The notes under the pieces are model-generated. The model was not told the origin of the DNA and ran no database searches. It saw nothing but the letters and a program-made list of their open reading frames with translations. The position numbers and the translations under genes were made by a program. A stretch of DNA of 59,297 nucleotides, taken from the IMG/VR virus record IMGVR_UViG_3300037313_002165, positions 1 to 59,297 of that record; one strand, written 5' to 3'. This stretch comes from a virus (lineage: Duplodnaviria; Caudoviricetes). This document shows positions 2,923 through 53,366 of this stretch, in pieces (positions within the stretch are counted from its first letter, which is position 1; every line of letters starts with the position of its first letter).

Positions 2923-5511
2923 ATGACCGACACCTACAAAGACTTCCTGAAATCGAAGGTCCGGCTCGCGGAGTCGTGGGGGTTTGACGATGTCACCGAG
3001 CTGGAAGTCAACCCGGTGCTCAAGCCGCATCAGCGGGCGACCGTCATCTGGAATATCCGGGGCGGCAGGCGGGCGGATTTCCTTTCGTTCGGGCTCGGGA
3101 AGACGCCGATTCAACTGGAGACGTTGCGGCTCATCCTGACGCGGGTGATCGGCCGCGCGCTCATCGTGTGCCCGCTCGGCGTGCGGCAGGAGTTCGCGCG
3201 CGATGCAGTGCAACTGCTCGGCTGGGCGGAGCCGCCGAAATTCATCCGGTCCATCGCAGAGGCGGGTCCCACGGGGATCTATCTCACCAACTATGAAACG
3301 GTGCGCGATGGGAAGCTCGACCCGGCGGAGTTCGTCGCGGTATCGCTCGACGAGGCGGCGATTCTGCGCGGCTTCGGCGGCAGCAAGACGTTTCGCGAGC
3401 TGATGCTGAAATGCACGGGCGAGGGCGGGCCGTGCTCAAAGGACCGGGCGGACGGCAAGCGCGTGACCTATCGCTTCGTCGCGACGGCGACGCCTTCGCC
3501 GAACGACTATATCGAGCTGCTGGCCTACGCGGAATTTCTCGGGGTGATGGACATCAGCCAGGCGAAGACGCGCTTCTTCAAGCGCGACTCGACCAAGGCG
3601 GACAACCTGACGATTCATCCGCACAAAGAGCGCGAGTTCTGGCTGTGGGTCGCATCGTGGGCCATCTTTGTGCAGCGGCCGTCGGACCTCGGCTTCGACG
3701 ACACGGGCTACGAGCTGCCGGCGATGACGGTGAACTGGCACGAGGTGGCGACCGACCACAGCGAGGCCGGGTTCGAGCGCAGCGGGCAGACCAAGATGTT
3801 TCGCGATGCGGCGATCGGTGTGCAGGACGCGGCGGCGGAGAAGCGCATCAGCCTGCCGGCGCGGATTGCGAAGCTGATGGAGATTCGCGCCGAGGACCCG
3901 GAGGCGCACCGCATCATCTGGCACGACCTCGAGGCGGAGCGGGAGGCCATCGAGGCGGCGATTCCCGGCATCGTGACGGTGCGCGGCGCCGATACGGATG
4001 ACCACAAAGAGAGCTCGATTCTCGGATTCAGCGACGGCGCGTTCCCGGAGCTGGCGGGCAAGCCGTGCATGCTGGGGGCGGGCGTAAATTTCCAGCGGCA
4101 TTGCTGGTGGTCGGTGTTCCTCGGCATCGGTTTCAAGTTTTCGGATTTCATCCAGGCGGTTCACCGGGTGCAGCGGTTCCTGCAAACGCACCCGGTGCGG
4201 ATCGACCTCATCTTCACGGAAGCCGAGCGCGAGGTGCGCAAGCAACTCGAGAGGAAGTGGCGGCAACATAACGAAATGGTGGCAAAAATGACTTCGATTA
4301 TTCGGGAGTTCGGGCTGTCGCACGCGGCGATGGCGCACACGCTGACGCGGAAGCTCGGGGTGGAGCGCGTCGAAATCACCGGAGCGGGCTATCGCCTGGT
4401 GAACAACGATTGCGTGGACGAGGCGCGGCGGACGCCGGACAACAGCGTGGGGCTCATCCTGACCTCGATTCCGTTTTCATCGCAGTACGAGTACTCCCCG
4501 AATTACGCGGACTTCGGCCACTCGGAGGGCAACGCGGAATTTTTCCAGCAGATGGATTTTCTCACGCCGGAGCTGCTCCGAGTACTCCAGCCAGGGCGCA
4601 TCGCGGCGGTGCACGTGAAGGACCGCGTCGTGCCGATGGGCATGACGGGCCTCGGCAGCCAGACGGTGTACCCGTTCCACTGCGAGACCATCCGCCACTA
4701 CGTGCGGCACGGCTTCGCCTACATGGGGATGAAGACGGTGGTGACGGACGTCGTGCGCGAGAACAACCAGACGTACCGGCTCGGGTGGACGGAGCAATGC
4801 AAGGACGGGACGAAGATGGGAGTGGGGATGCCGGAATACCTGTTGCTCTTCCGCAAGCCGCCGACGCAGACCCAGAACAGCTACGCGGACGTGCCGGTGG
4901 TGAAACAGAAAAGCCGATACACGCGCTCGCGCTGGCAGATTGATGCGCATGGGTTTGCCCGCAGCTCGGGCAACCGGCTGCTGACGCCGGAGGAATTGCG
5001 CGACCTGCCGCACGACGCGATTTTCCAGATTTTCCGCCAGCACTCGCTGACGCGGGTTTACGATTTCGAGCATCACGTGAAGCTCGGCGAGGCCTTGGAG
5101 CAGGATGGCCGGCTGCCGGTGACCTTCATGCTGCTGCAACCGCAGAGCTGGCACGACGACGTGTGGACCGACATCACGCGGATGCTGACGCTCAACAGCA
5201 CGCAGGCGGCGAAGGGGAAGGAAATGCACCTGTGCCCGATGCAGTTCGACCTGGCGGACCGCGTCATCGAGCAATTCTCGATGGAGGGCGAGACGGTGCT
5301 GGACCCGTTTGGCGGGCTGATGACGGTGCCATACCGGGCGATCCTGCAGCGCCGGGTAGGCCTCGGGTTCGAGCTGAACCCGGCGTATTTCGTGGACGGC
5401 GCGCACTACTGCCGGATGGCGGCGGAAGAGATGAGCACGCCGGCGTTGTTCGATGTGGCGGAGTTTGAGCCACGGGCGATGGCGGTGGCAGGGACGGGAG
5501 GTGGATCGTGA
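2923..5511 (+). CDS. SNF2-like helicase fused to an N6/N4 DNA methyltransferase
   Basis: GLGKT, LDEA, TATPSPND, QAVHRVQRF; C-terminal TSIPF (motif IV variant) and VLDPFGG (motif I). Confidence 0.88.
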   Translation: MTDTYKDFLKSKVRLAESWGFDDVTELEVNPVLKPHQRATVIWNIRGGRRADFLSFGLGKTPIQLETLRLILTRVIGRALIVCPLGVRQEFARDAVQLLGWAEPPKFIRSIAEAGPTGIYLTNYETVRDGKLDPAEFVAVSLDEAAILRGFGGSKTFRELMLKCTGEGGPCSKDRADGKRVTYRFVATATPSPNDYIELLAYAEFLGVMDISQAKTRFFKRDSTKADNLTIHPHKEREFWLWVASWAIFVQRPSDLGFDDTGYELPAMTVNWHEVATDHSEAGFERSGQTKMFRDAAIGVQDAAAEKRISLPARIAKLMEIRAEDPEAHRIIWHDLEAEREAIEAAIPGIVTVRGADTDDHKESSILGFSDGAFPELAGKPCMLGAGVNFQRHCWWSVFLGIGFKFSDFIQAVHRVQRFLQTHPVRIDLIFTEAEREVRKQLERKWRQHNEMVAKMTSIIREFGLSHAAMAHTLTRKLGVERVEITGAGYRLVNNDCVDEARRTPDNSVGLILTSIPFSSQYEYSPNYADFGHSEGNAEFFQQMDFLTPELLRVLQPGRIAAVHVKDRVVPMGMTGLGSQTVYPFHCETIRHYVRHGFAYMGMKTVVTDVVRENNQTYRLGWTEQCKDGTKMGVGMPEYLLLFRKPPTQTQNSYADVPVVKQKSRYTRSRWQIDAHGFARSSGNRLLTPEELRDLPHDAIFQIFRQHSLTRVYDFEHHVKLGEALEQDGRLPVTFMLLQPQSWHDDVWTDITRMLTLNSTQAAKGKEMHLCPMQFDLADRVIEQFSMEGETVLDPFGGLMTVPYRAILQRRVGLGFELNPAYFVDGAHYCRMAAEEMSTPALFDVAEFEPRAMAVAGTGGGS

Positions 5512-7808
5512 TTCGCCGGCAACTCAGTTTCCAGGTCTACGACGAGTTGTTCATCGACAACTTTGCGGGAGGCGGCGGAGCCAGCACGGGAATTGAGCGC
5601 GCGCTGGGTCGACCGATTGACCACGCGCTGAACCACGACCGCAAGGCGCTCGCGATGCACCGGATGAATCATCCGACCACGAAGCATCACCCGGAAGACA
5701 TCCGCCACGCGGACCCGCTGAAGATCGCCGGCGAGCGGCCGGTGGGCGGCATCTGGTTTTCGCCCGACTGCAAACACCACTCGAAGGCCCGAGGCGGCAA
5801 GCCGCGCGACAAGAAGATCCGCGGGCTGGCGTGGTCGGTCATTCATTGGGTCAACGTGCTGTCCAAGCGCAAGGCGAAGGGCCCGCGCGTCATCTACCTG
5901 GAGAACGTCGAAGAGTTCGCGCAATGGTGTCCGCTCGACTCGGACGATAATCCCAGCAAGTGGCGTAAGGCGTGGTATTTCATCTGCTTCACGGGCGCGC
6001 TGATGCGTCGCGGTTTCCACGACATCGAGTGGGCGCCGGGTGATGGGTTTGTCTATCGTCGGACGCGGACCGGCATCGAGCGCGTGGAGGGCGTCACGTT
6101 TAGCTCGCGCGCGTGCGACTACAGCACGCCGACGATTCGCAAACGGCTCTACCTGATTGCCCGCTGCGACGGCCGCCACATCACGTGGCCGGAGCAGACG
6201 CATGCGGAGCCGACCAAGGCGAAGAAGCTGAAACTGAAGCCGCACAAAATAACGGCGGACTACCTGAATTTTTCACTCCCGTGCCCGAGTATCTTTCTCA
6301 CGCGTGCGGAGGCTCGCGAGTTCAAGAAGCGGACGGGCATACAAATTCAACGGCCGCTCGCCCACGCCACAATGGCACGTATCGCGAAGGGCGTGAAGCG
6401 CTACGTGCTCGATGCGAAGAAACCCTTCATCGTCGAGCTCACGCATGAGGGCAACGACGGCGTGGCATCAGTCGACGATCCCATCAAAACCATCACTGCG
6501 GCGAATCGCGGGGAGAAATCGCTCGTCGTGCCGACCGTGGTCGGTTGTGGCGGCCGGGCTGCGCAGTCGCGGCCGCGAGGCGCGGATGAGGCGCACGCGA
6601 CCACGACATCGAAGGCCGATGCTTGTCTTACGCAGGCGACGCTCGCGCCGTTTGTCACGGAGCACGCCAATGCCTCGACCCAGCGTAATTTTCCCATCAA
6701 TGAACCAGCGCGCACCCAATGCGCGGAAGTGAAGGGCGGGCACTTCGCAGCCGTCGCGCCCTACCTCGTACCGCGCTACGGCGAGCGGAAGGGCCAGGAG
6801 CCGCGCACGCGATCGGTGGAGCAACCGGCGCCGGTAATCGTGCCGACTGGCAACGGCGGAAGCCTCGCGGCCGTTCATCTCACCAAATTTCAGGAGAACT
6901 CGATAGGCCAGACGCCTGCTGAGCCCATCGACACCATCATGGCCGGCGCGACACGGTTTGGGATGATAACGACCGGCATTGTGAAGATGCACGGCGATCC
7001 TGCTTCGCACGCTCCGGGCCACGCGGCCGACGAGCCGATTCACACTATCAACGCGGAGGGCAATCACCACGTGTTGTTCGAGGGGAAGCTGCATCGCGTA
7101 ACCGACATCCGCATACCGACGTTTGAGGAGTGGTTCGCCCTGACCAAGGCCCACGGCGGCACTCGCGAAGAATACGACGCCTTGTACTCGGCAGACGGGG
7201 AAGGGCAGCGGGAGTTCAATCGGCGTGTCGCCGCCTACATTGCACAGCACAATGGCGGGGCGGCGGGTCACCAAACGGTGGGGCATCCTTTGGACAAGCC
7301 TCTTAGCACGCTTAGTTCGAAGTGCTCTCAACAACAAGTAGTCGGCGCATCGCTCGTGCCGTATTACGGCTCGGAAGAAGATAGCGTCGGCCTCAACGAG
7401 CCATGCCGCACGGTCACCACGCGCGACCGCTTCGGGCTGACGCCGGCGTTCGGCGCCACGTCACCGCTGCCTCCTCATCTCGAGGCCGGCGCGCGGCGAG
7501 TCGCGGCCTTTCTGCGCGAGCACGGCATCGAGTTCGAAGGCGATTATGCGACCGTGGGCGACTACATCATCGTCGATATCGGCATGCGGATGCTGAAGCC
7601 GCGGGAGCTTTATTGCCTGCAAGGCTTCCCGGTAAATTACATCATCGACCGCGGGCTCGATGAAGATGACGACGGCCGGGTTTTCGAAATCAAGCTAAAC
7701 GGCACCGAACAGGTGCGGATGTGCGGCAACAGCGTTTGCCCACCGATGGCCGAAGTCCTGGTCGCCGCGAACAATCCCGAAATGCGCTTTGAGGAGCTGG
7801 CCGCATGA
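5508..7808 (+). CDS. DNA (cytosine-5) methyltransferase
   Basis: FAGGGG, SPDC, ENV, RKRLY, QGFP, GNSVCP motifs; long repetitive central region. Confidence 0.92.
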   Translation: MIRRQLSFQVYDELFIDNFAGGGGASTGIERALGRPIDHALNHDRKALAMHRMNHPTTKHHPEDIRHADPLKIAGERPVGGIWFSPDCKHHSKARGGKPRDKKIRGLAWSVIHWVNVLSKRKAKGPRVIYLENVEEFAQWCPLDSDDNPSKWRKAWYFICFTGALMRRGFHDIEWAPGDGFVYRRTRTGIERVEGVTFSSRACDYSTPTIRKRLYLIARCDGRHITWPEQTHAEPTKAKKLKLKPHKITADYLNFSLPCPSIFLTRAEAREFKKRTGIQIQRPLAHATMARIAKGVKRYVLDAKKPFIVELTHEGNDGVASVDDPIKTITAANRGEKSLVVPTVVGCGGRAAQSRPRGADEAHATTTSKADACLTQATLAPFVTEHANASTQRNFPINEPARTQCAEVKGGHFAAVAPYLVPRYGERKGQEPRTRSVEQPAPVIVPTGNGGSLAAVHLTKFQENSIGQTPAEPIDTIMAGATRFGMITTGIVKMHGDPASHAPGHAADEPIHTINAEGNHHVLFEGKLHRVTDIRIPTFEEWFALTKAHGGTREEYDALYSADGEGQREFNRRVAAYIAQHNGGAAGHQTVGHPLDKPLSTLSSKCSQQQVVGASLVPYYGSEEDSVGLNEPCRTVTTRDRFGLTPAFGATSPLPPHLEAGARRVAAFLREHGIEFEGDYATVGDYIIVDIGMRMLKPRELYCLQGFPVNYIIDRGLDEDDDGRVFEIKLNGTEQVRMCGNSVCPPMAEVLVAANNPEMRFEELAA

Positions 7809-8011
7809 AGACGATGTCGCCAGATGGCAGAATCGTCGGAGCGCAGGTGACGAGCCGGACGGCCGTGCGCGCGGCGCCTGCGCCGATTCCGGAGCGCACC
7901 GAGCCGCCGGGCGACGTGACGACCATCTGGCGCGACGGCATGGTGTGGCGGCAATCGCCGGGGAAGCGGGCCAAGATGCTGCCGTCGATTTCGCCGAGGG
8001 CGGAGAACTGA
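7805..8011 (+). CDS. Hypothetical protein
   Basis: ATGA-coupled short ORF. Confidence 0.5.
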   Translation: MKTMSPDGRIVGAQVTSRTAVRAAPAPIPERTEPPGDVTTIWRDGMVWRQSPGKRAKMLPSISPRAEN

Positions 8012-8317
8012 ATGACCATGCGAGACGAACACGACAAGAAGCCCCGTCGCCGCGTGCTGCTTACGCTCAAACTCGGCGCTGACAACCGCGAGGAAATGAT
8101 TCACGCCCTTGAGCAAATCGCGCTTGAGATGCGACGCGGCTACCTGATGGGTGAGGCGGCAGGGGGCGGATATAGTTCCGGCTATTGGCTCAAGGTCACG
8201 GAAGACGAGACGGTCACGCACGACACCTACTTCGCAGCCATCAACGCCATGATTGAAGCCGAGCAGGCAGACCGCGCACTCGACGACATTGGCACAACCG
8301 TCGCCTCCAAAGTGTGA
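8012..8317 (+). CDS. Hypothetical protein
   Basis: GGAG RBS; fits the operon. Confidence 0.65.
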   Translation: MTMRDEHDKKPRRRVLLTLKLGADNREEMIHALEQIALEMRRGYLMGEAAGGGYSSGYWLKVTEDETVTHDTYFAAINAMIEAEQADRALDDIGTTVASKV

Positions 8318-8325
8318 GAAACGAT

Positions 8326-9504
8326 ATGAGCCGCCTACAACCAACGCTTTTTGATGGTGCGCGGATGCAGTTACGTGACGCGTTCGATCTCACTTGCCAG
8401 AGCCTCACGGCCTACGGCGCGATGTATGACCATTGGGCAATCGCGTTCAGCGGCGGAAAGGATTCATCGGCCACCGTGACGGCGACGGTAAAGGCGATCC
8501 GAATGGGTTTGGTGCAGGCTCCAAAGACCTTGACGGTGCTGATGAGCGACACGCGGATGGAGCTGCCGCCGCTGTTCGGCACCGCGATGCAGATTCTTGC
8601 CGAGCTGCGCGCCATCGGCATTCGCACGCAAGTCGTGATGCCGAAGATGGAGGACAGGTTTTTCGTGTATATGCTCGGTCGCGGCGTGCCGCCGCCGTCG
8701 AACACGTTTCGCTGGTGCACGGCGCAACTCAAAATCGAGCCGATGATTTCGGCGTTGCAGGCGCTGCGCGATGAGCACGGGCAAAAGTTCCTGATGCTGA
8801 CTGGCGTGCGGCTCGGCGAGAGTGCGGCGCGCGACGCGCGGATTCAGCTTTCATGCGGAAAGAATAATTCCGAGTGCGGGCAAGGCTGGTTTCAGATCGC
8901 CACGCCCGAGGCCGTCGCGGATACGCTCGCGCCGCTGCTGCACTGGCGGCTCTGCCACGTCTGGGACTGGCTCACCGGCCTCGTGCCCGAGGAATTGGAA
9001 CACGGCTTTTCGACCAAGCTCATTGCCGCCGTTTACGGTCAGGATGAAGACCTCGAAACGCACGCGCGCACTGGATGTGTCGGTTGCAATCTCGCGAGCC
9101 GCGACTTCGCCCTAGAGTCGATAATCCAGCGCCCGCAGTGGTCGCATTTCTCTCCGTTACTTGAGCTTCGCCCGCTCTACGCCGAGCTGAAAAAGCCAGA
9201 GAATCGGCTGCGGAAAGATGGCACGGAAACGCGCAAGGACGGCTCGCTCGTGGCGAACCCCTGCCGGATGGGACCGCTGACGTTCGCCGCGCGCCGCTGG
9301 GCGCTGGGCCGCGTGAAAGACATCCAGGCGCGGGCCGGTGTGGACCTCATCAACGCCGAGGAAGAGGCGAAGATCATCGAGCTGATCGACGCCGGGACTT
9401 GGCCGCGCGGCTGGGATGGTTCTGAGCCGGTAGCCAACGTGCCTTTCGAGAACGTTCGCCCCGATGGCAGCGTTCAAACCGCTATGTTGGACCTCCTCCG
9501 CTGA
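8326..9504 (+). CDS. PAPS-reductase family (DndC-like) protein
   Basis: PP-loop SGGKDS, DTRME, RWCTAQLKI, GVRLGES, RTGCVGC; alternative start GTG 8314. Confidence 0.85.
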   Translation: MSRLQPTLFDGARMQLRDAFDLTCQSLTAYGAMYDHWAIAFSGGKDSSATVTATVKAIRMGLVQAPKTLTVLMSDTRMELPPLFGTAMQILAELRAIGIRTQVVMPKMEDRFFVYMLGRGVPPPSNTFRWCTAQLKIEPMISALQALRDEHGQKFLMLTGVRLGESAARDARIQLSCGKNNSECGQGWFQIATPEAVADTLAPLLHWRLCHVWDWLTGLVPEELEHGFSTKLIAAVYGQDEDLETHARTGCVGCNLASRDFALESIIQRPQWSHFSPLLELRPLYAELKKPENRLRKDGTETRKDGSLVANPCRMGPLTFAARRWALGRVKDIQARAGVDLINAEEEAKIIELIDAGTWPRGWDGSEPVANVPFENVRPDGSVQTAMLDLLR

Positions 9505-9524
9505 ACGCAAGGAAGCCCGCGAAA

Positions 9525-9920
9525 ATGAATACTCCTGCACCACTTGCAAAGATTGCCGAGGCCCTCGGTTGGATGAGGGCCGAGCGCAACGGCGTCGAAA
9601 TCTGGCGTGACCCGGAGGGCGGTTACGTCGTCTCGGCGCAGCTTCTTGAGCAGATGGGAGAGGTTGTGCCGCGAGCCATCGCGGAGATGAAGGACCAAAG
9701 CAAAATCGACTCGCTCGTTGTCGGGAAACTCCAAGCGCAGGTAGTCACGGCGACGGAAGACACGGCGTTGCTCAATCGCTGGGAGAAGGGGCAATGGCTC
9801 ATCGGCGTTTCCTCGACTGGCGAGTGGCAGGCGATGAGCCAAACACCGGGACTCATCGGCAAAGGCTTCGTCGGCAAATCCGTGCGCGACGTGCTGCGCC
9901 AGATTCGCGACCTCACCTAA
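9525..9920 (+). CDS. Hypothetical protein (array gene 1)
   Basis: ORF bounded by the heptamer motifs. Confidence 0.7.
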   Translation: MNTPAPLAKIAEALGWMRAERNGVEIWRDPEGGYVVSAQLLEQMGEVVPRAIAEMKDQSKIDSLVVGKLQAQVVTATEDTALLNRWEKGQWLIGVSSTGEWQAMSQTPGLIGKGFVGKSVRDVLRQIRDLT

Positions 9921-9933
9921 GAACGAAGGCCAC

Positions 9934-10236
9934 ATGGACCACTACGAAATAATGAAACAGCACTGGCTACATTGGCTGGTCGGATTCTTCGTGAAGAACC
10001 GCCGCCAGACATGGCTCCGGTGGCATTGTTTTCACGATCGATTTCACCGGCACCTGACTCCAACGATCACGTTTAAGCCGTGGGAGAAATCGTGCCTCGC
10101 TACGATCCCAGAGCTGGGGATCGTGACTCACTCCATCGGCATCGGCTTCGAGTTTTGGAGCTGGGCTTGGATGCTTAGTTTCGGCGTCTCCACTCAATCG
10201 CCAGAGGACGCCGCGAAAATGGCGTGCAACCGCTGA
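9934..10236 (+). CDS. Hypothetical Trp-rich protein (array gene 2)
   Basis: ORF bounded by GAACGAA spacers. Confidence 0.65.
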   Translation: MDHYEIMKQHWLHWLVGFFVKNRRQTWLRWHCFHDRFHRHLTPTITFKPWEKSCLATIPELGIVTHSIGIGFEFWSWAWMLSFGVSTQSPEDAAKMACNR

Positions 10237-10249
10237 GAACGAAAATCCA

Positions 10250-10624
10250 ATGAGCGCCGAGGATAACGAGAAAGACTTAGAGAACACGCGGGAGCTGTTT
10301 GATTTCCTGCGCGGAAACGTGCCGGAGGGCTACGAGATCGACGCGGGCCACGTACCGAAGCTGACGGCCGATCAAGCCGCGACCGTCATTTGGTTTCTCG
10401 GCAACATGTATTGGAAGGTCACTGATCACGTTGAACGGTGCGACGTGTGCGGTGAGTGGTATAACACGTGGTGTGAGGGCGAGTGTGTTGATTGCCCGCC
10501 CGCGCCATACTTTTTCTGCGGCAACTGCATGGACGGCGAGGAAGCGCAGCGAAAACGCCGCATCGAGCGCGGACTAGAACGCGCCAAGAAACGCCAACCG
10601 CGCTGCGCCGTAATCCCCTCCTGA
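10250..10624 (+). CDS. Hypothetical protein, putative Zn-binding (array gene 3)
   Basis: CDVC, CVDC, CGNC. Confidence 0.7.
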   Translation: MSAEDNEKDLENTRELFDFLRGNVPEGYEIDAGHVPKLTADQAATVIWFLGNMYWKVTDHVERCDVCGEWYNTWCEGECVDCPPAPYFFCGNCMDGEEAQRKRRIERGLERAKKRQPRCAVIPS

Positions 10625-10636
10625 GAACGAAGACCT

Positions 10637-10873
10637 ATGAACGACAAGCAACGCATCGAATTTCTCTCCGGGCTCGTGAAGAACTGCCCGACCGCCAGCT
10701 TTCACCACAACGAGGACGTGGGCATGACGTTCCCGGACGGCAGTTCGATGCCGGTCGGATTTACGATTCTCGTCGAAGGCGTCTGCGATCCGGTGCGCGT
10801 CACCGCTTCAACCTTCCGCAAGTGCGTCGATGCACTACGCCGCGAGATGGGCGACAGCGGCGAAATCTTTTGA
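10637..10873 (+). CDS. Hypothetical protein (array gene 4)
   Basis: ORF bounded by GAACGAA spacers. Confidence 0.7.
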   Translation: MNDKQRIEFLSGLVKNCPTASFHHNEDVGMTFPDGSSMPVGFTILVEGVCDPVRVTASTFRKCVDALRREMGDSGEIF

Positions 10874-10886
10874 GAGGAACGAATCC

Positions 10887-11174
10887 ATGATACCGAAAAC
10901 CACTCCGAAATTCGAAGAACTGCCGCAGTACAGGGCCAGAGAGCAGGGACGCGTTTACCTCGAAGTGTTGGTGACACCAACAATCGCCGGATGGCGCGGG
11001 GTGTGCAATGAGTGTAAGTTCAAGATTCCGGGAAAAGACGATCCAGTGCGCGCCGCTTGGGGCGCTGCCGAGGTGGCGTTCACCGAATATTTCGACCGCA
11101 ACGTATCGTGGACGGAAATCCGACTGGAGCGAGAGACTCCATGGGAGTTCGTCGCGAGCATGCCCAACGAGTGA
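10887..11174 (+). CDS. Hypothetical protein (array gene 5)
   Basis: ATG 3 nt after the heptamer; CNEC. Confidence 0.7.
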   Translation: MIPKTTPKFEELPQYRAREQGRVYLEVLVTPTIAGWRGVCNECKFKIPGKDDPVRAAWGAAEVAFTEYFDRNVSWTEIRLERETPWEFVASMPNE

Positions 11175-11188
11175 GAGAACGAACAATT

Positions 11189-11410
11189 ATGGCTACCTCA
11201 CTCAAGGCGCTCCGTAAGCGCATCAACTCAGCGAAATCAGACCGCGGCTTGAAGAAGCTCGTGACGGAGGCGCTCGCTCAAGGCGAGGCCACCTTCCGCT
11301 ACGCGCAACACTGCGATTGGCGCGATGCAGTTTTGGCCATCGGGGAGGCCCGTTGCTACGGCGCCTTGGCTCTCGATGCGATTAATAAGTGCCGCGCTGT
11401 GCCGGTCTGA
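11189..11410 (+). CDS. Hypothetical protein (array gene 6)
   Basis: ATG 5 nt after the heptamer (MATSLKALRK...). Confidence 0.7.
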   Translation: MATSLKALRKRINSAKSDRGLKKLVTEALAQGEATFRYAQHCDWRDAVLAIGEARCYGALALDAINKCRAVPV

Positions 11411-11435
11411 CCGAACGAATCAGGGATTTTGATAC

Positions 11436-12836
11436 GTGACCAAGACCGGCAAAAAATTACGTAACTCGCAGGGGCAATTCGTCGAAAGATGGATGCTCGA
11501 CGATGGCGCGTCTCACCGGTGTCCGACAGACCGGCCCATGCTCCCGGTGCTCGGTCCGCATTGGAAAGCCCTATGGGTTTACAAGCGCAACCGCAGGTAC
11601 TTCGGGGGAGAGTGGCGCGGGAGCGTCGGGGGCCGTCGCGTGCGTTACCAGGCCGAGACGGCTGAAAAACTCCTGCAAAAACTACGGGTCGCGGAGCGCG
11701 AGTTGCTGCAACATGGCGCACTGGCCCGCGCGCTCTCCACCGAGCAACGGTACATCGCCGCGCAATGCTTCATCATTTGCGAGCGGCTGGGGGTGACGTT
11801 GCTCGATGTGATTCGCGATTTTGAGCGGACGCATCCGCACGGCGCCAACGCCCGCACGCTCGACCAGGTGCGCCTCGAATTGATCGATGCAAAGCGGGAG
11901 ATGAAGCGCAGCGAGCGGCATGTGCTGTCGCTGGATTACCGGTTGCGCCGTCTCGTCGCCGCGATTGGGGACAAGAAAATCAGCGCCATCACCACGCGCG
12001 AGCTTGAGGAAGAACTGGCGCGCCATCGCGACTGGAACGCGACGACGGTGCACGGCGTGGTGCAGGGGTGGAAGATCGCCTTTAATTTTGCGGTGCGCCG
12101 CGGTTACCTGCTGAACAATCCCGCGGACCGGCTGGAGCTGCCGAAGATTATTCACGACGAGCCGAGCATCTTTTCGGTGGATGAGGCGCGGCGGCTGATG
12201 GCGGCGACGTTGTTTTGCGATCGCGACCCGATGCTGCCGCATTGCCGGGCATATCTGGCCATCGGGATGTTTGCGGGACTACGGCCGGATGAGATTGCGC
12301 GCCTGGAGTGGCAGCATGTCGATTTGACGACCGCAACGATTCGCGTGAAGGCCGCCAACGCCAAGGACCGCGACCGGCGCATCGTCGACATTCAGCCGAA
12401 TCTTGCGGCCTGGCTGCAACCGGTGGCGCGCACGCGGGGGCATGTGCTGACCAAGCCGCTCGCGGTGTTGCGCGTGGCCGCGCGCGCGGTGCTGGGGCTC
12501 GACGAGTGGCCGCACGACATCATGCGCCACTCGTTTGTCTCTTATTACTTCGCGCTGTGTGAGGATGAGGCGAAGACGAAGAAGCAGGTGGGGCACCGGG
12601 ATGACGGGCGCGTCTTCTACAATCATTACATGGTGCCGTGCTCGCGGGCGGACGGGCGGCGGTTCTTTGGGATTGTGCCGCCGGTGGGGCTGCTCATGAG
12701 CGGCGCGGAGGCGCGGCCGCGCTATGATGACGGGATGCAACCGCTGCGGGGTCTTAGCACCACGCCGGGGCCAGATGATGAGCTCACGGAGTCAGAGCTG
12801 GCGACATATCCGGTACATCCGGAGGAGAATCGATGA
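11436..12836 (+). CDS. Tyrosine recombinase (second integrase-family gene)
   Basis: GLRPDE (R), AKDR (K), HDIMRH, GH..FYNHY; catalytic set intact. Confidence 0.9.
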   Translation: MTKTGKKLRNSQGQFVERWMLDDGASHRCPTDRPMLPVLGPHWKALWVYKRNRRYFGGEWRGSVGGRRVRYQAETAEKLLQKLRVAERELLQHGALARALSTEQRYIAAQCFIICERLGVTLLDVIRDFERTHPHGANARTLDQVRLELIDAKREMKRSERHVLSLDYRLRRLVAAIGDKKISAITTRELEEELARHRDWNATTVHGVVQGWKIAFNFAVRRGYLLNNPADRLELPKIIHDEPSIFSVDEARRLMAATLFCDRDPMLPHCRAYLAIGMFAGLRPDEIARLEWQHVDLTTATIRVKAANAKDRDRRIVDIQPNLAAWLQPVARTRGHVLTKPLAVLRVAARAVLGLDEWPHDIMRHSFVSYYFALCEDEAKTKKQVGHRDDGRVFYNHYMVPCSRADGRRFFGIVPPVGLLMSGAEARPRYDDGMQPLRGLSTTPGPDDELTESELATYPVHPEENR

Positions 12837-13210
12837 ACGCGCGCGATATCGACTCACTCAGCGCGGCCATCGGGCGGCATCTTCGGGCGAACCGGAGCGC
12901 GGTCATGCAGGAGAAGGGCGTGCATAACGCCATCGCGGCGGCGTTCGCCGAGATTGGCATGAAGGTAGAGCGGGAGTATCGCCTCACGCCAGAATCACGG
13001 CTCGATTTCTTCCTGTCGGATTGCGGAACCGCAGTCGAGGTGAAGAAGGGTAACGCGGGACTGCCGGTCGTCAGCCAGATCGGCCGCTACTTCGAGTCCG
13101 AGAAGGTGACCGGCTGCATCCTGGTCGCAATGCGAATTGATCCTGCAGTGCCAAAAACATTTCGCGGCAAGCCTATCGCGCACCTGCCGCTCTGGAAATT
13201 TCTACTCTGA
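12833..13210 (+). CDS. PD-(D/E)xK restriction-endonuclease-like protein
   Basis: EREY..RLDF..AVEVK..QIGRY. Confidence 0.75.
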   Translation: MNARDIDSLSAAIGRHLRANRSAVMQEKGVHNAIAAAFAEIGMKVEREYRLTPESRLDFFLSDCGTAVEVKKGNAGLPVVSQIGRYFESEKVTGCILVAMRIDPAVPKTFRGKPIAHLPLWKFLL

Positions 13211-14898
13211 TGCGACCGCAAGGCCAACTCTACTACGTGCCCGCACCCGCGAAAGAATGGGTGTTCAAGGTAACACCATCGCTCGCGATGCGACTCAAGC
13301 GGATGTTTCCACGCATGGTGCAATCGCAGGCGACGCTGCTGCGGTTGAAGCACACGCCGGATATCGCGGCGGATATCGAGTGGGTGTTGCAGCGGTATCC
13401 GCTCACGATTGCCGCGGCGGAACTGGAATTTCTCAATCGGTCGGCGGATGCGTATCGCGAGCGGCAGGCGTTGCTCGAAAGCATCATGGCGGCTCCGCCA
13501 CCGCCATCCTCTTTCGAGATGGCACTCGCGCCGCGCGAGTATCAGGCGCAGGCCGCGGCGCTCTACCTCGCGCAAGGGCACTTGCTGCTCGCGGACGTGG
13601 TGGGTGCCGGAAAAACGGTGAGCGCGATCGCGTCGTTCACGGATAAGCGGGTCGTGCCGGTGTGCGTGGTCGTGAAGGCTCACCTCACGAAGCAGTGGAA
13701 GGATGAGATTGCGAAATTCCTGCCCGCAGTACGGACGCACATCGTCAAAAAAAGCACGCCTTACGAGCTGCCGGCGGCCGATGTCTATATCTGCACCTAC
13801 AACAAGCTGCACGGCTGGTGGGGCATATTTGCGGAAAAATGCCGGTCGGTCGTCTTCGACGAGATCCAAGAGGTGCGCGTCATCGGCTCGGGAAAATACG
13901 AGGCGGCGCGAAACCTTTGTGAGGTTGTGCCGTTTCGCCTGGGGCTGTCGGCGACGCCGATTCACAATTACGGAGGCGAGGCGTGGAACGTGTTCAACCT
14001 GCTTTGCCCGGACGTGCTCGGTGGGGGAGAAGAGTTTATGCGCGAATGGTGCACGCATGGGATGGTGAACAATCCGGAGGCGCTGGGCTCCTACCTGCGC
14101 GAGAACAAATTGATGCTGCGGCGCACGCGGAAGGAAATCGGCCGCGAGCTGCCGCCCATCGTGCGCTATGTGCAGGACATCGAGGTGGACCATGACGTTT
14201 ACCAGAAAGGATTGAGCGGCGCGGACGAGCTCGCGCGCCTCGTGTTGAGCGGAACTTTTCTCGAGCGCGGGCAGGCGGCGCGGCAATTCGACTTGGAGTT
14301 GCGCCAGGCGACCGGGTTAGCGAAGGCGCCCTACGTCGCGGAACTCATCCGGATGCTCGTCGAGTCGGGCGAGCAAGTCCTGGTCGGCGGCTGGCATCGC
14401 GCGGTGTACGACGTGTGGCTCGACCGGCTGAGCAATCTTTATCCCGTGATGTTCACCGGATCCGAGAGCCCAACGCAGAAAGAGGCCTCGCGCCAGGCTT
14501 TCATCGAAGGGCGTTCGAAGGTGATGCTGATGTCGCTGCGGTCGGGTTCGGGGCTGAACGGGTTGCAGGACGTGTGCTCGTGTTGCGTCATTGGGGAACT
14601 CGATTGGACGCCGGCGGTGCACGAGCAGTTCATCGGTCGGCTCGCGCGCGACGGGCAGACGGAATCGGTGCAGGTGTTCATCCCGGTCGCGCCGGTGGGA
14701 TGTGACCCGACGATGGCGAGCGTGTTGGGGCTGAAGCAGGCGCAGGCGACGGGGATCGTCGACCTCGGGAAGGAAATCACGGCGGATTTTGTCGAGACGG
14801 ACCCGCAGCGACTGAAGCAGCTAGCGATCGATTACCTGAAGGCGCGGAAGCTGCCCGTGCCGGAGGGCAGCGCTCCGCCGGGCGAGACGGCGGCGTAG
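13210..14898 (+). CDS. SNF2-family helicase
   Basis: ADVVGAGKT, FDEIQ, LSATP, GLNGLQ, QFIGRLARDGQ. Confidence 0.9.
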   Translation: MRPQGQLYYVPAPAKEWVFKVTPSLAMRLKRMFPRMVQSQATLLRLKHTPDIAADIEWVLQRYPLTIAAAELEFLNRSADAYRERQALLESIMAAPPPPSSFEMALAPREYQAQAAALYLAQGHLLLADVVGAGKTVSAIASFTDKRVVPVCVVVKAHLTKQWKDEIAKFLPAVRTHIVKKSTPYELPAADVYICTYNKLHGWWGIFAEKCRSVVFDEIQEVRVIGSGKYEAARNLCEVVPFRLGLSATPIHNYGGEAWNVFNLLCPDVLGGGEEFMREWCTHGMVNNPEALGSYLRENKLMLRRTRKEIGRELPPIVRYVQDIEVDHDVYQKGLSGADELARLVLSGTFLERGQAARQFDLELRQATGLAKAPYVAELIRMLVESGEQVLVGGWHRAVYDVWLDRLSNLYPVMFTGSESPTQKEASRQAFIEGRSKVMLMSLRSGSGLNGLQDVCSCCVIGELDWTPAVHEQFIGRLARDGQTESVQVFIPVAPVGCDPTMASVLGLKQAQATGIVDLGKEITADFVETDPQRLKQLAIDYLKARKLPVPEGSAPPGETAA

Positions 14899-48685: not shown

Positions 48686-49031
48686 AGACCAGCGAACGGT
48701 CGTCATACCGCAAGACGCAGGGTGGGGCGAGTTGCTAAGCGAAGCTTTGACACCTCGTGGCCGTCCACCCGGTGAAGGTTGGAAAACCATCACGGAAATT
48801 GCTGCCGATCTGCAATGCTCGCGCCAAATGGTGGACGCGCTGCTCATGAGATGGCGCCAGAGGTCCGCGGTCGAAGAGACCTACGGCACCGTCAACAATC
48901 GACGCACCCTATACCTCAGGCCGAAGCAGGCGGCAAAATCCCAAACCACGCCTCGCCGTCCTTCTCGCTCATTACTCCCTCGTAAATCTCGGTTGTGCTC
49001 GCATACCGGTGTTGCGAAAGCCGCGCCGTGA
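48651..49031 (+). CDS. Winged-HTH protein
   Basis: WKTITEIAADLQCSRQMVDALL; 3' end overlaps the integrase. Confidence 0.55.
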   Translation: MKPRTHKPSHSEDQRTVVIPQDAGWGELLSEALTPRGRPPGEGWKTITEIAADLQCSRQMVDALLMRWRQRSAVEETYGTVNNRRTLYLRPKQAAKSQTTPRRPSRSLLPRKSRLCSHTGVAKAAP

Positions 49032-50097
49032 GCGCCGGGTTTTTCAGCCATGCGAGGTGAGCGCTGATGCAGGTTTTCTTGAGTCGGTTTTGTGAGCCCT
49101 CTTCGATTTCCGCGAGTCGGAACGCCAGCGATTTCTCATTGCGGTACTGCCACCATTCCATGGCCCAAGTCGCATCGTTCGCGCCTGCGAGCCATGCCCA
49201 CAGATTGTCCGGGTGCCCCTGGCGGAATCGCGTCTTGCCGCTCTTGTGCACCGCACCGCGCAGCCGCAGGCCTCGTTTTTCGTAGTCGATATCTTCCTTG
49301 CGGATGCGCCCGGCCGAGCTTGGCCGGAGAAACCCAAAAGCCTCCAGCGCCATCCGCGGCGCAATGGGCTTGGCCGCGATCGCCGCGAACAATCTCCGCC
49401 CCTCCTCGACCGTCAGGAGTTTAACGTCCTCCTCGACAATCGCCGGCACCGGCACGCCATCGCAGGGATTGTGTGGAATCCACCGCTTCACCCGCACACA
49501 CCAATCCATGAATGTGTTCACGTCCTTCCGGTGATGCCGGAGCGTAACCGACTCCATGGGCTCATTGGTCCGGGGGTTTTTGAGGCCGGCCAGCCATTTT
49601 GAGATTTCCTCATCCGTAACATCCCGCAGCCGGCGGTCGCCAAAGTACTCGGCGAACCGCTGCTCCAAATGCTTCTCGAAATGTCGCCACGTATCCGGCG
49701 AAATGTTTTCTCCGCCCCGGAAGGCGAGGTATTTCGTTACGGCATCGCGTACCGTGACAGCATTGCTCGCCCCCTTCATCGCCAGCCACTCGCGAGCGAC
49801 CGTCACCGGATGGACCTCGCCGACCAGCTCGCGAAACTCGGTCCAAATCGCAACCTCCTTCGCGCCGACAAAGCGCGCCTGCGTCCCGTATTTTTCCCGC
49901 TGCGCCAACCAGTCCGCCGCAAATTTCCGGCGCGCATCTTCCGATTCGAAGGCCCTTCCTCGCTTCAAGCCGTCGCCTGCCCGCCATCTCGCCAGAAACG
50001 GCTTTGTCTTCCCGGGCCGAGACTCGAACCACATCCCCTCCGGGGCCGATTTGGTGGGCTCTGAGTGGGCGTTTTTAGGTGGGCGCTTGGTGGGCAT
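48916..50097 (-). CDS. int: Phage integrase (tyrosine recombinase) with an atypical box II
   Basis: GFLRPS (R), HKSG (K), QNRLKK in place of HxxLRH, QH..TTEIY; adjacent to the attP-like site. Confidence 0.85.
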   Translation of the reverse strand: MPTKRPPKNAHSEPTKSAPEGMWFESRPGKTKPFLARWRAGDGLKRGRAFESEDARRKFAADWLAQREKYGTQARFVGAKEVAIWTEFRELVGEVHPVTVAREWLAMKGASNAVTVRDAVTKYLAFRGGENISPDTWRHFEKHLEQRFAEYFGDRRLRDVTDEEISKWLAGLKNPRTNEPMESVTLRHHRKDVNTFMDWCVRVKRWIPHNPCDGVPVPAIVEEDVKLLTVEEGRRLFAAIAAKPIAPRMALEAFGFLRPSSAGRIRKEDIDYEKRGLRLRGAVHKSGKTRFRQGHPDNLWAWLAGANDATWAMEWWQYRNEKSLAFRLAEIEEGSQNRLKKTCISAHLAWLKNPALTARLSQHRYASTTEIYEGVMSEKDGEAWFGILPPASA

Positions 50098-52603: not shown

Positions 52604-52794
52604 GCGATTCCGAAAAGCTCGATGTGATTTTGGGCAAGCTCGCCAAAATGGAGAGGCTGCATGATCGCATGCTGCTGAAGCGGCCTTCGCAAACGGAACT
52701 GGCGCGGAAGTCGGGTGTGAGCGTGACGACGCTCTGGCGTCGGCGGAAGCGTGAAGAAATGCGGCGGTTGGTCGCGGGAGGTTCCGCCGCATGA
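52600..52794 (+). CDS. HTH protein (possible excisionase)
   Basis: SQTELARKSGVSVTTLWRR. Confidence 0.65.
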   Translation: MSDSEKLDVILGKLAKMERLHDRMLLKRPSQTELARKSGVSVTTLWRRRKREEMRRLVAGGSAA

Positions 52795-53366
52795 GCGCGA
52801 CGATCTTCAACACCATCACCGGAGACGACTGGAGGCGCATGTTCGCGGCGCACCGGGCGCGCGGGCGGTTCGAGGGGAACTCGCTGCTGGCGCAGATTCG
52901 CGCGGTCGCGGCGAAGAAAAATTTATTGCAGCGTGGTGAAACGGTATCACGCCAGCCTCATAAGCTGGAGGGAGCTGGTTCAATTCCAGCCGCTGCACCC
53001 AGTTTCCCGGACGCGACCGCCACGAAGTCACTACAGCCGAAACCGGCCCACGCGGATAACCAACCAGAATGCAAGGTCATCGCGCCGGGAATCTCTTTCG
53101 CCGGCGTCAGCAGTGTGGCCCCGAAAAGGAGCGGCGTGCACGACCACGCGGAGGCCGGCGCCGGCGATTCTTTTTCGGGCGATGCGCCGCTGGGCGAAGC
53201 GTTGTTTGCCATCGGGCTCGCAGGCATCGCCCCCGGATTTGACTCGCAGAATGGCAGCGAAAGCCACGCGCGCCGTCCCCGCCATGACCTGCACCTGAGC
53301 GAAAGCAAAACGCGGCCGATATGCGCAGGGCCGACAGGGGACGGTGCGACTTTTCCGAAATCGTAA
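52791..53366 (+). CDS. Hypothetical ORF reading through the tRNA
   Basis: ATGA start; only the first ~45 codons look protein-like. Confidence 0.3.
   Translation: MSATIFNTITGDDWRRMFAAHRARGRFEGNSLLAQIRAVAAKKNLLQRGETVSRQPHKLEGAGSIPAAAPSFPDATATKSLQPKPAHADNQPECKVIAPGISFAGVSSVAPKRSGVHDHAEAGAGDSFSGDAPLGEALFAIGLAGIAPGFDSQNGSESHARRPRHDLHLSESKTRPICAGPTGDGATFPKS
52927..53001 (+). tRNA. tRNA with CAT anticodon (Met or Ile2)
   Basis: Acceptor TGCAGCG/CGCTGCA, D stem GTGA/TCAC, anticodon arm CCAGC-CTCATAA-GCTGG, T arm GCTGG-TTCAATT-CCAGC, encoded CCA. Confidence 0.9.

Follow-up and report, generated by a model that had tools for sequence, protein, structure and literature searches.

We propose that the heptamer GAACGAA is a start-associated leader, independent of the Shine-Dalgarno sequence, which travels with exchangeable accessory genes of phages and also serves as the point at which these genes are exchanged; we give this reading about an even chance of being right. 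The heptamer punctuates an array of small genes in the phage record IMGVR_UViG_3300037313_002165 (Duplodnaviria; Caudoviricetes), a whole virus record of 59,297 bp with a G+C content of ~63% that was analysed over its full length (hereafter, the window). The array ends at a gene for a tyrosine recombinase, P0001, which is most likely a circulating cargo gene and not the builder of such arrays. The proposal draws on the position of the heptamer in four phages (the window, G001, G007 and G008), on an exchange of genes at the heptamer between two of them, and on a sister motif at the gene starts of a further phage, G012.

Results

Exact heptamers at the junctions of small genes

Six exact copies of GAACGAA lie on the + strand of the window, each at the stop codon of one of six consecutive small open reading frames (ORFs) of 131, 100, 124, 78, 95 and 73 aa, located on the same strand between 9503 and 11419 (Table 1). 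A sequence-only reading of this DNA had reported these copies 0-3 nt after the stop codons, and all six were found where it had placed them, with stop-to-heptamer gaps of 0, 0, 0, 3, 2 and 2 nt. It had also stated that between the short ORFs the next ATG lies 3-6 nt after the heptamer, with no strong Shine-Dalgarno sequence. This spacing is seen at five of the six copies (gaps of 6, 6, 5, 3 and 5 nt), the sixth being separated by 16 nt from a GTG at 11436. The intergenic spacers of the array measure 10-25 nt. The heptamer itself contains neither GGAG nor AGGA, and the array genes lack GGAG, while other early genes of the window have it. The one-mismatch variant GAACGCA, which the earlier reading had put at the opening of the array, does overlap the TGA of the preceding PAPS-reductase gene, and a further variant, GAAACGA, stands ahead of that gene at 8318.

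The window contains 14 copies of GAACGAA in total, seven per strand, when 10.86 +/- 3.44 are expected and 17 of 100 shuffled sequences reach 14. The total is therefore close to expectation, and it is the clustering of the heptamer, not its overall abundance, that is unusual. The densest same-strand cluster of 1.5 kb holds six copies (Poisson P = 8e-9); among 300 first-order Markov simulations, six copies in 1.5 kb were never obtained (0/300) and four copies only once (1/300).

Pfam and PHROG searches with the six array ORFs gave matches in 0/6. ORF A is taken to be a real gene because seven homologues (P0069-P0075) come from other phage-sized contigs. In this set the C-terminal half is highly conserved (...EDTALLNRWEKGQWLIG...RQIRDLT) and the N-terminal halves are unrelated, the pattern of a mosaic small-protein family.

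The same heptamer in otherwise unrelated phages

G001, a complete phage of 36.4 kb that has terminal repeats, encodes a recombinase 56% identical to P0001. It carries eight forward copies and one reverse copy of GAACGAA. All eight forward copies fall within the 2.8 kb immediately 5' of the recombinase gene and each one sits at a stop/start junction of non-homologous small genes, four of the eight standing -1 to 4 nt ahead of the start. One-mismatch variants occupy three more junctions at the far end of the array (1959, 2689 and 2816), so that in G001, as in the window (8318 and 9503), degenerate variants are found at the 5' end of the array, the one distant from the recombinase. Beyond the recombinase, G001 and the window have almost nothing in common, and blastp between their array ORFs detected no homology (all E >= 0.16). 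The G001 cargo comprises two DNA methyltransferases and small membrane proteins; the array is flanked by an HNH endonuclease gene on one side and by the recombinase and terminase genes on the other.

In both phages that have the recombinase the array terminates at its gene, which is co-oriented with the array and lies at its 3' end. A third close homologue, 60% identical, is found on the 1.6-kb metagenome contig L091, with TGAGAACGAATG at the gene start and the heptamer overlapping the ATG. Thus, the heptamer lies at most 16 nt from the start in 3/3 close recombinase homologues with readable upstream DNA (window, G001 and L091).

Two more arrays were found through relatives of one of the G001 methyltransferases. 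They belong to G007 (locus L249) and G008 (locus L250), which have three and six heptamers, respectively. Neither contains a recombinase of the P0001 type, in records rated 54% (G007) and 50% (G008) complete; G007 has a distant integrase ~28 kb away, at its end, and G008 has no integrase. The sequence-only reading had named arrays without the recombinase as evidence against its cassette idea, and G007 and G008 have such arrays, as far as these half-complete records go. Between the window and G008 there are no ORF matches at E <= 1e-6. As the heptamer occurs in phages without a common protein and in phages without the recombinase, its reader would be the host or the RNA itself.

The array is part of the early operon in all four phages. 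The window and G007 have it 5' of the genes for a replication initiator, a DnaC-like protein, TerS and TerL, and in G001 it ends at the recombinase, adjoining TerL. Structural genes are shared between the window and G007 and between G001 and G008, and the early region is common to G007 and G008. From this crosswise sharing of modules we conclude that the four phages draw from one mosaic gene pool. The early regions of G007 and G008 are 94-95% identical and their structural modules differ (G007 resembling the window, and G008 resembling G001), which looks like a recent exchange of half a genome.

Whole-gene exchange at the heptamer

The identity of 94-95% between the L249 and L250 early regions extends as far as the heptamer at 6497-6503. 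At this point L250 contains an insertion of 561 nt that comprises three units and has the heptamers at 6497 and 7058 as its borders; homology resumes directly after the second of these. The upstream breakpoint is resolved to ~20 nt, in this one pair of phages, and it is the one case in which whole-gene exchange at the heptamer was shown. The insertion is at the array's 3' end, and one of its units is a decayed duplicate. Its content is a 57-aa ORF, a methyltransferase remnant of 19 codons and a Cys-rich ORF of 92 aa, each ending in TGAACGAA. The remnant (6677-6769), between two heptamers, is a methyltransferase unit cut to 19 codons by an internal deletion that kept the leader, the start and the last four codons. 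The junction shared by G007 and G008 is longer than the heptamer, ~16 nt (CCAACACC-TGAACGAA), and unrelated ORFs there end in Asn-Thr-stop.

One methyltransferase gene also sits between heptamers in arrays of phages that are unrelated otherwise, and its neighbours there differ. The homology between the G001 gene and its L249/L250 relatives sets in with the start codon, which follows the heptamer (represented in L249/L250 by the relic TAAACGAC) by a few nt, and ends 12-26 nt short of the next heptamer. The sequence-only reading had supposed that cassettes are gained and lost at the heptamer. Gene content does change there, in L249/L250 and for the methyltransferase unit; the integron-like mechanism that it had attached to this process is not supported.

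A sister motif at the gene starts of a related phage

G012 (locus L013, also L343-L347; whole record, 95,020 bp) is kin of the window phage, with a PAPS reductase 61% identical, an SNF2 helicase 63% identical and other genes in common. The pattern ACCCGAA-N0-30-ATG has 53 matches on its coding strand and none on the opposite strand, compared with 1 and 2 for a reversed control pattern. This sister motif has the form ACCCGAA(ACGAA)ATG, in leaders made of CGAA units such as CAGACACCCGAAACGAATCCCGAA-ATG. The consensus, approximately CAGACACCCGAA-ACGAA-TCCCGAA-ATG, is present on one strand at 39 gene starts spread over the genome, and in 23 of the 39 the last CGAA directly adjoins the ATG. The distance from the motif to the upstream stop varies from -36 to 181 nt; therefore, the sister motif tracks starts, not stops. 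A search of G012 with the recombinase ORF gave no match.

Shine-Dalgarno-like tetramers precede 8 of 108 G012 genes (by crude gene calls) and 12 of 67 window genes. Many late genes of the window (e.g. 27737, 29960, 34188, 35303 and 39236) likewise lack a Shine-Dalgarno sequence and start after C/A-rich stretches such as CCCAATG or CCAACCATG; the same CCAACC-ATG stands ahead of a small membrane-protein gene in the G001 array.

The G012 leader looks like a discrete start signal without a Shine-Dalgarno sequence. The two phages are also connected by an identical leader, since GAAACGATATG at position 8318 of the window is the leader of two G012 gene starts (ACCCGAAACGATATG is found twice in G012). 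The PAPS-reductase gene behind it is the first gene of the window with a leader of the CGAA type. We infer from these sequences that GAACGAA, read as two joined CGAA units, and the G012 motif may form one leader family, in which GAACGAA would be the form found on mobile accessory genes.

The recombinase at the end of the array

The product of 11436-12836 is, to judge from its sequence, a divergent tyrosine recombinase. It matches Pfam Phage_int_M with 28.0 bits (cut-off 27), Phage_integrase with 27.5 bits (cut-off 27.1) and phrog_1 with E = 1.4e-27, and the profile of its family matches XerD (E = 2.2e-5) and HP1 integrase (E = 9.3e-5). The GTG start at 11436 is backed by N-terminal homology to longer relatives; the record's own protein, P0002, has 398 aa and begins 68 codons 3' of this GTG. 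The family has 47 close members with 53-100% identity (P0002-P0048, P0002 included). In the 29 aligned members R283, K310, R364, H387 and Y398 are invariant, and so is D361, which occupies the position of the HxxR histidine in the HP1 alignment. None of the NCBIfam integron-integrase models was matched, the best hits being Xer models with 38.5 bits against cut-offs of 220-371. The recombinase is an additional one in both phages: the window has another integrase-like gene at 48916-50097 on the - strand, and G001 encodes a separate canonical integrase.

Distant relatives of the recombinase (25-36% identity; 9 viral, 78 metagenome and 35 genome loci) showed no junction arrays of the heptamer or of any other 6-mer, and a single-protein scan of viral contigs returned no relative. 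Among the 35 distant relatives in genome contigs (23-36% identity), 30 bear names of the Verrucomicrobiota type. This is the sole basis on which we consider that the hosts are probably Verrucomicrobiota.

Junction sequences, host genomes and other relatives

None of the 21 distinct junction copies deviates from the seven nucleotides. An alignment of 15 sites showed nothing conserved beyond them, and neither inverted repeats nor flanking binding arms. The sequence-only reading had seen no attC hairpins, and folding of 140-nt single-stranded DNA around 14 junctions agrees with it: no attC-like hairpin was predicted (z from -1.61 to +0.90), and the heptamer was unpaired in most of the 14 folds. 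Between 8000 and 13300 of the window, promoter-like sites (1; 1.1 expected) and terminator-like sites (6; 5.4 expected) were not enriched and none fell at a heptamer. An Rfam search identified no family, with a single match at chance level (E = 0.85). Contigs of X1, a possible source run, span 7000-11318 and 11290-12960 unchanged; no heptamer joint was present in Logan contigs of the two sequencing runs X1 and X2, but contigs cannot show rare excision products.

In five Verrucomicrobiota genomes GAACGAA-N0-7-ATG occurs 61-96 times per genome, versus 12-32 times for the reversed control. Among 163 confident starts in loci of metagenome-assembled genomes, the motif was not one of the enriched 5-mers.

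Searches through other array neighbours brought few relatives. PAPS-reductase relatives were collected from 80 viral loci (46-86% identity); at least two stop-heptamer-start junctions occurred in 0/80 and one junction in L051, and tblastn of the six ORFs and the recombinase against these 80 loci gave no match. In L004, the nearest in gene order, the gap from the PAPS-reductase gene to the SNF2 gene is ~0.8 kb, compared with 3.7 kb in the window. These two genes are adjacent in L004. The PAPS-reductase relative of highest identity (86%), in L001, ends TAACGACCAACGATG at ~5226-5245; its stop-to-start spacer is filled by two AACGA units, and the locus has no exact GAACGAA. A scan of viral contigs with ORF C and a scan with the ORF A family alignment found no relative, a scan with the gene upstream of the G007 array returned G007 and G008 alone, and the PAPS-reductase gene was the sole match of blastn against phages. 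A 17-mer junction element was found at 15 loci: G007, G008 and 13 others, each a single coding or chance match.

Features of the window

The features of the array region are collected in Table 1. The window also has a DNA-modification block (2923-7808, 8326-9504 and 13210-14898) that encodes an N6/N4 methylase (862 aa), a protein containing a C5 methylase (766 aa), the DndC-like PAPS reductase and the SNF2 helicase. Elsewhere, a tRNA-Met gene (anticodon CAT) at 52927-53001 lies inside the ORF 52791-53366, which makes the call of this ORF doubtful.

Table 1. Features of the heptamer array and its flanks in the window (coordinates of the 59,297-bp record)
Feature	Coordinates	Strand	Remarks
Variant GAAACGA	8318..8324	+	directly 3' of TGA 8315-8317; 1 nt 5' of PAPS-reductase ATG; not in the list of the sequence-only reading
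PAPS-reductase / DndC-like gene	8326..9504	+	Pfam PF01507 E = 4e-9; phrog_12882 E = 4e-144; G012 homologue 61% identical
Variant GAACGCA (one mismatch)	9503..9509	+	overlaps PAPS-reductase stop TGA
ORF A, 131 aa	9525..9920	+	7 homologues elsewhere; no Pfam/PHROG match
Heptamer 1	9921..9927	+	TAA-GAACGAA-6 nt-ATG
ORF B, 100 aa	9934..10236	+	no family match
Heptamer 2	10237..10243	+	TGA-GAACGAA-6 nt-ATG
ORF C, 124 aa, Cys-rich	10250..10624	+	no family match; no relative in viral contigs
Heptamer 3	10625..10631	+	TGA-GAACGAA-5 nt-ATG
ORF D, 78 aa	10637..10873	+	no family match
Heptamer 4	10877..10883	+	TGA-3 nt-GAACGAA-3 nt-ATG
ORF E, 95 aa (from ATG after heptamer)	10887..11174	+	no family match
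Heptamer 5	11177..11183	+	TGA-2 nt-GAACGAA-5 nt-ATG
ORF F, 73 aa	11189..11410	+	no family match
Heptamer 6	11413..11419	+	TGA-2 nt-GAACGAA-16 nt-GTG; in-frame TGA between heptamer and start
Accessory tyrosine recombinase P0001	11436..12836	+	GTG start; last heptamer-preceded gene

Discussion

A translation signal independent of the Shine-Dalgarno sequence, which the sequence-only reading had listed first among its alternatives, now fits the observations best. We hypothesize that GAACGAA is the core of a short leader of CGAA units, used in one orientation ahead of genes without a Shine-Dalgarno sequence, in a mosaic pool of soil phages. The accessory unit of the window would consist of the heptamer, 3-6 nt, an ATG, the ORF and its stop codon. 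Ribosomes that end one ORF could then reinitiate 10-16 nt downstream, assisted by the leader. As the same short sequence is present at both ends of each unit, recombination in or beside the heptamer would swap, duplicate or delete whole genes, and the outcome of such exchange would be an array of unrelated genes.

Several observations weigh against this proposal. The exact heptamer is restricted to one array in each of the window, G001, G007 and G008, and is not found before every gene without a Shine-Dalgarno sequence; the G012 motif resembles GAACGAA but does not match it exactly. The exactness of 21/21 junction copies is stricter than that of the usual ribosome-binding signals. Moreover, in spacers where the start is at least 11 nt away (window 11413; G001 3979, 4167 and 4903; five junctions in G007/G008) the heptamer always keeps within -2 to 7 nt of the stop, with 11-52 nt between it and the start, when a pure start signal should keep its distance to the start and not to the stop in long spacers. 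Three Verrucomicrobiota genomes have 16S rRNAs with canonical 3' ends, and none of these rRNAs contains the complement of the heptamer. We also rejected GAACGAA as a general start signal of the presumed hosts, given that only 4 of 40 sampled GAACGAA-N0-7-ATG sites in two Verrucomicrobiota genomes are plausible starts and the rest are intragenic. We judge a role of the leader in initiation, proposed from sequence, to be evenly balanced between acceptance and doubt.

The heptamer could instead be read on the transcript for a purpose other than initiation, either as a processing site at which the polycistronic early mRNA would be cut behind each stop codon, leaving every ORF on a short-leader message of its own, or as the operator of an RNA-binding regulator, as with RegB and RegA of T4. 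Such a role would agree with a motif that is strand-specific, intergenic, exact and unpaired in the predicted folds, and that keeps close to the stop in every long spacer. The G012 leaders open with the conserved CAGACACCCGAA at a variable distance from the upstream gene, like a defined 5' end, and a host enzyme could read the heptamer in phages that have no protein in common. We nevertheless consider this explanation unlikely, because the phages share no nuclease or RNA-binding protein, Rfam contains no corresponding family, and the last unit adjoins the ATG in 23 of the 39 G012 starts, as expected for initiation and not for cutting. It is very improbable, in turn, that the heptamer has no function and is a scar or microhomology whose uniformity results from recurrent illegitimate or RecT-type recombination between junctions. 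The window does encode a RecT-family protein, the ends of the insertion and of gene homology lie at or near the junction element, and G007 and G008 share a junction of ~16 nt and have unrelated ORFs that end in the same Asn-Thr-stop. However, 7 bp is very short for exchange driven by homology, the heptamer is exact across lineages whose shared proteins are 27-56% identical, which needs selection, and the genome-wide motif adjoining the G012 starts speaks for a function. A DNA site for a host enzyme, for instance a Chi-like site protecting the DNA end cut by terminase, is hardly credible: the co-oriented copies do lie upstream of TerS and TerL in one orientation in all four phages, and across five Verrucomicrobiota genomes the counts of GAACGAA are 1.0 to 3.0 times those of its reversed control, but such a site has no need for exact stop/start placement, the genomic excess is small and most sampled copies followed by ATG are intragenic.

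The cassette system suggested by the sequence-only reading would be integron-like, with a recombinase of the P0001 type crossing over at the 7-bp heptamer to insert or excise leader-ORF-stop units at the 3' end of the array. The arrays do resemble integrons in being co-oriented series of unrelated small genes without promoters, with a conserved site that touches or overlaps every stop codon, in the way of attC, with duplicate and decayed units, with a tyrosine recombinase at one end in two of the four arrays, and with a content that varies between relatives (one pair, L249/L250) at breakpoints at the site. The window and G001, nearly unrelated otherwise and with unrelated array ORFs, both end their arrays at the recombinase, which is extra to another integrase in each; its close homologues have the heptamer near their start, the seven nucleotides are exact as a crossover region requires, the degenerate variants lie at the end distant from the recombinase, and the L250 insertion, with its decayed duplicate, lies at the 3' end. 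On the other hand, 7 bp cannot confer specificity alone, with 14 copies in the window, and the sites have no inverted-repeat arms, conserved flank, or imperfect palindrome or fold of the attC type, whose hairpin (R''/L''...L'/R') would be ~57-141 nt. The recombinase is downstream of the array and co-oriented with it, while integron integrases are divergent, with attI and the cassette promoter between them and the cassettes; it matched no integron-integrase model. Finally, the G007 and G008 arrays have no such recombinase, both records being about half complete, and G012 has the sister motif at 39 starts with no recombinase match. We thus regard the integron-like explanation as quite improbable. 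The same low likelihood applies to its most specific version, in which the heptamer would be the crossover core of a minimal system free of attC hairpins, would double as a translation leader in the early-operon array, and would be served by the P0001 family, which has Asp at the position of the HxxR His.

The leader that we propose has a close counterpart in the start-associated sequences (SAS) of Cluster K mycobacteriophages. SAS are 13-mers (GGGATAGGAGCCC) with the Shine-Dalgarno core AGGAG, located 3-7 bp upstream of starts, mostly ATG, in the non-structural half of the genome, and their reader was not identified (PMC3203893). GAACGAA is similar to SAS in being a short asymmetric repeat, nearly always in one orientation, a few nt 5' of the starts of genes of different families, with the upstream stop codon sometimes inside the repeat. 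It differs in that neither the heptamer nor the CGAA leaders contain a Shine-Dalgarno core, and neither has a complement in the three 16S rRNAs that were examined, in that the heptamer stays at the stop when the spacer is long, and in that the exact heptamer is limited to one array in four phages (the sister motif being genome-wide in G012), whereas SAS are spread over the non-structural half.

As exchange sites, the junctions recall the PeSL promoter/stem-loop cassettes of T4-type phages, which are composites of sigma-70 promoters and terminator hairpins with a length sufficient for homologous exchange (PMC2839356; PMC4122927). As there, a conserved intergenic motif lies in a variable region of small non-essential genes and bounds insertions, deletions and replacements between close relatives, for which L249 and L250 are the example here. 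Unlike PeSLs, the junctions conserve no more than 7 nt (~16 in G007/G008) and lack hairpins, and promoter and terminator sites are at chance level. Our best reading of the comparison is of a leader that may act like the Cluster K SAS and that, like PeSLs, would mark sites of accessory-gene exchange.

A host lineage of the Verrucomicrobiota would suit such a leader. Some Verrucomicrobia are reported to be scarce in Shine-Dalgarno sequences (PMC10783764), and initiation independent of these sequences is described for such bacteria, Bacteroidia included (PMC10783764, PMC10798248). Many genes of the phages studied here similarly have no Shine-Dalgarno sequence, and their leaders are A/C-rich and predicted to be unpaired. 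A discrete exact repeat, in contrast, is not described for those organisms in that work, and none was seen at the sampled host gene starts.

If GAACGAA and its relatives are a real initiation signal, they would constitute a discrete start signal without a Shine-Dalgarno sequence, used genome-wide in G012 and module-wise in the other phages. This would provide a handle on translation start in a Shine-Dalgarno-poor lineage, as well as a practical way to mark gene starts in phage contigs from metagenomes, where gene callers place them wrongly (P0002 is 68 residues short). Should the recombinase act at the heptamer, the arrays would represent a new kind of phage gene-capture device. The arrays also show whole accessory genes, DNA methyltransferases among them, passing between unrelated phages as units, which would bring their own expression signal.

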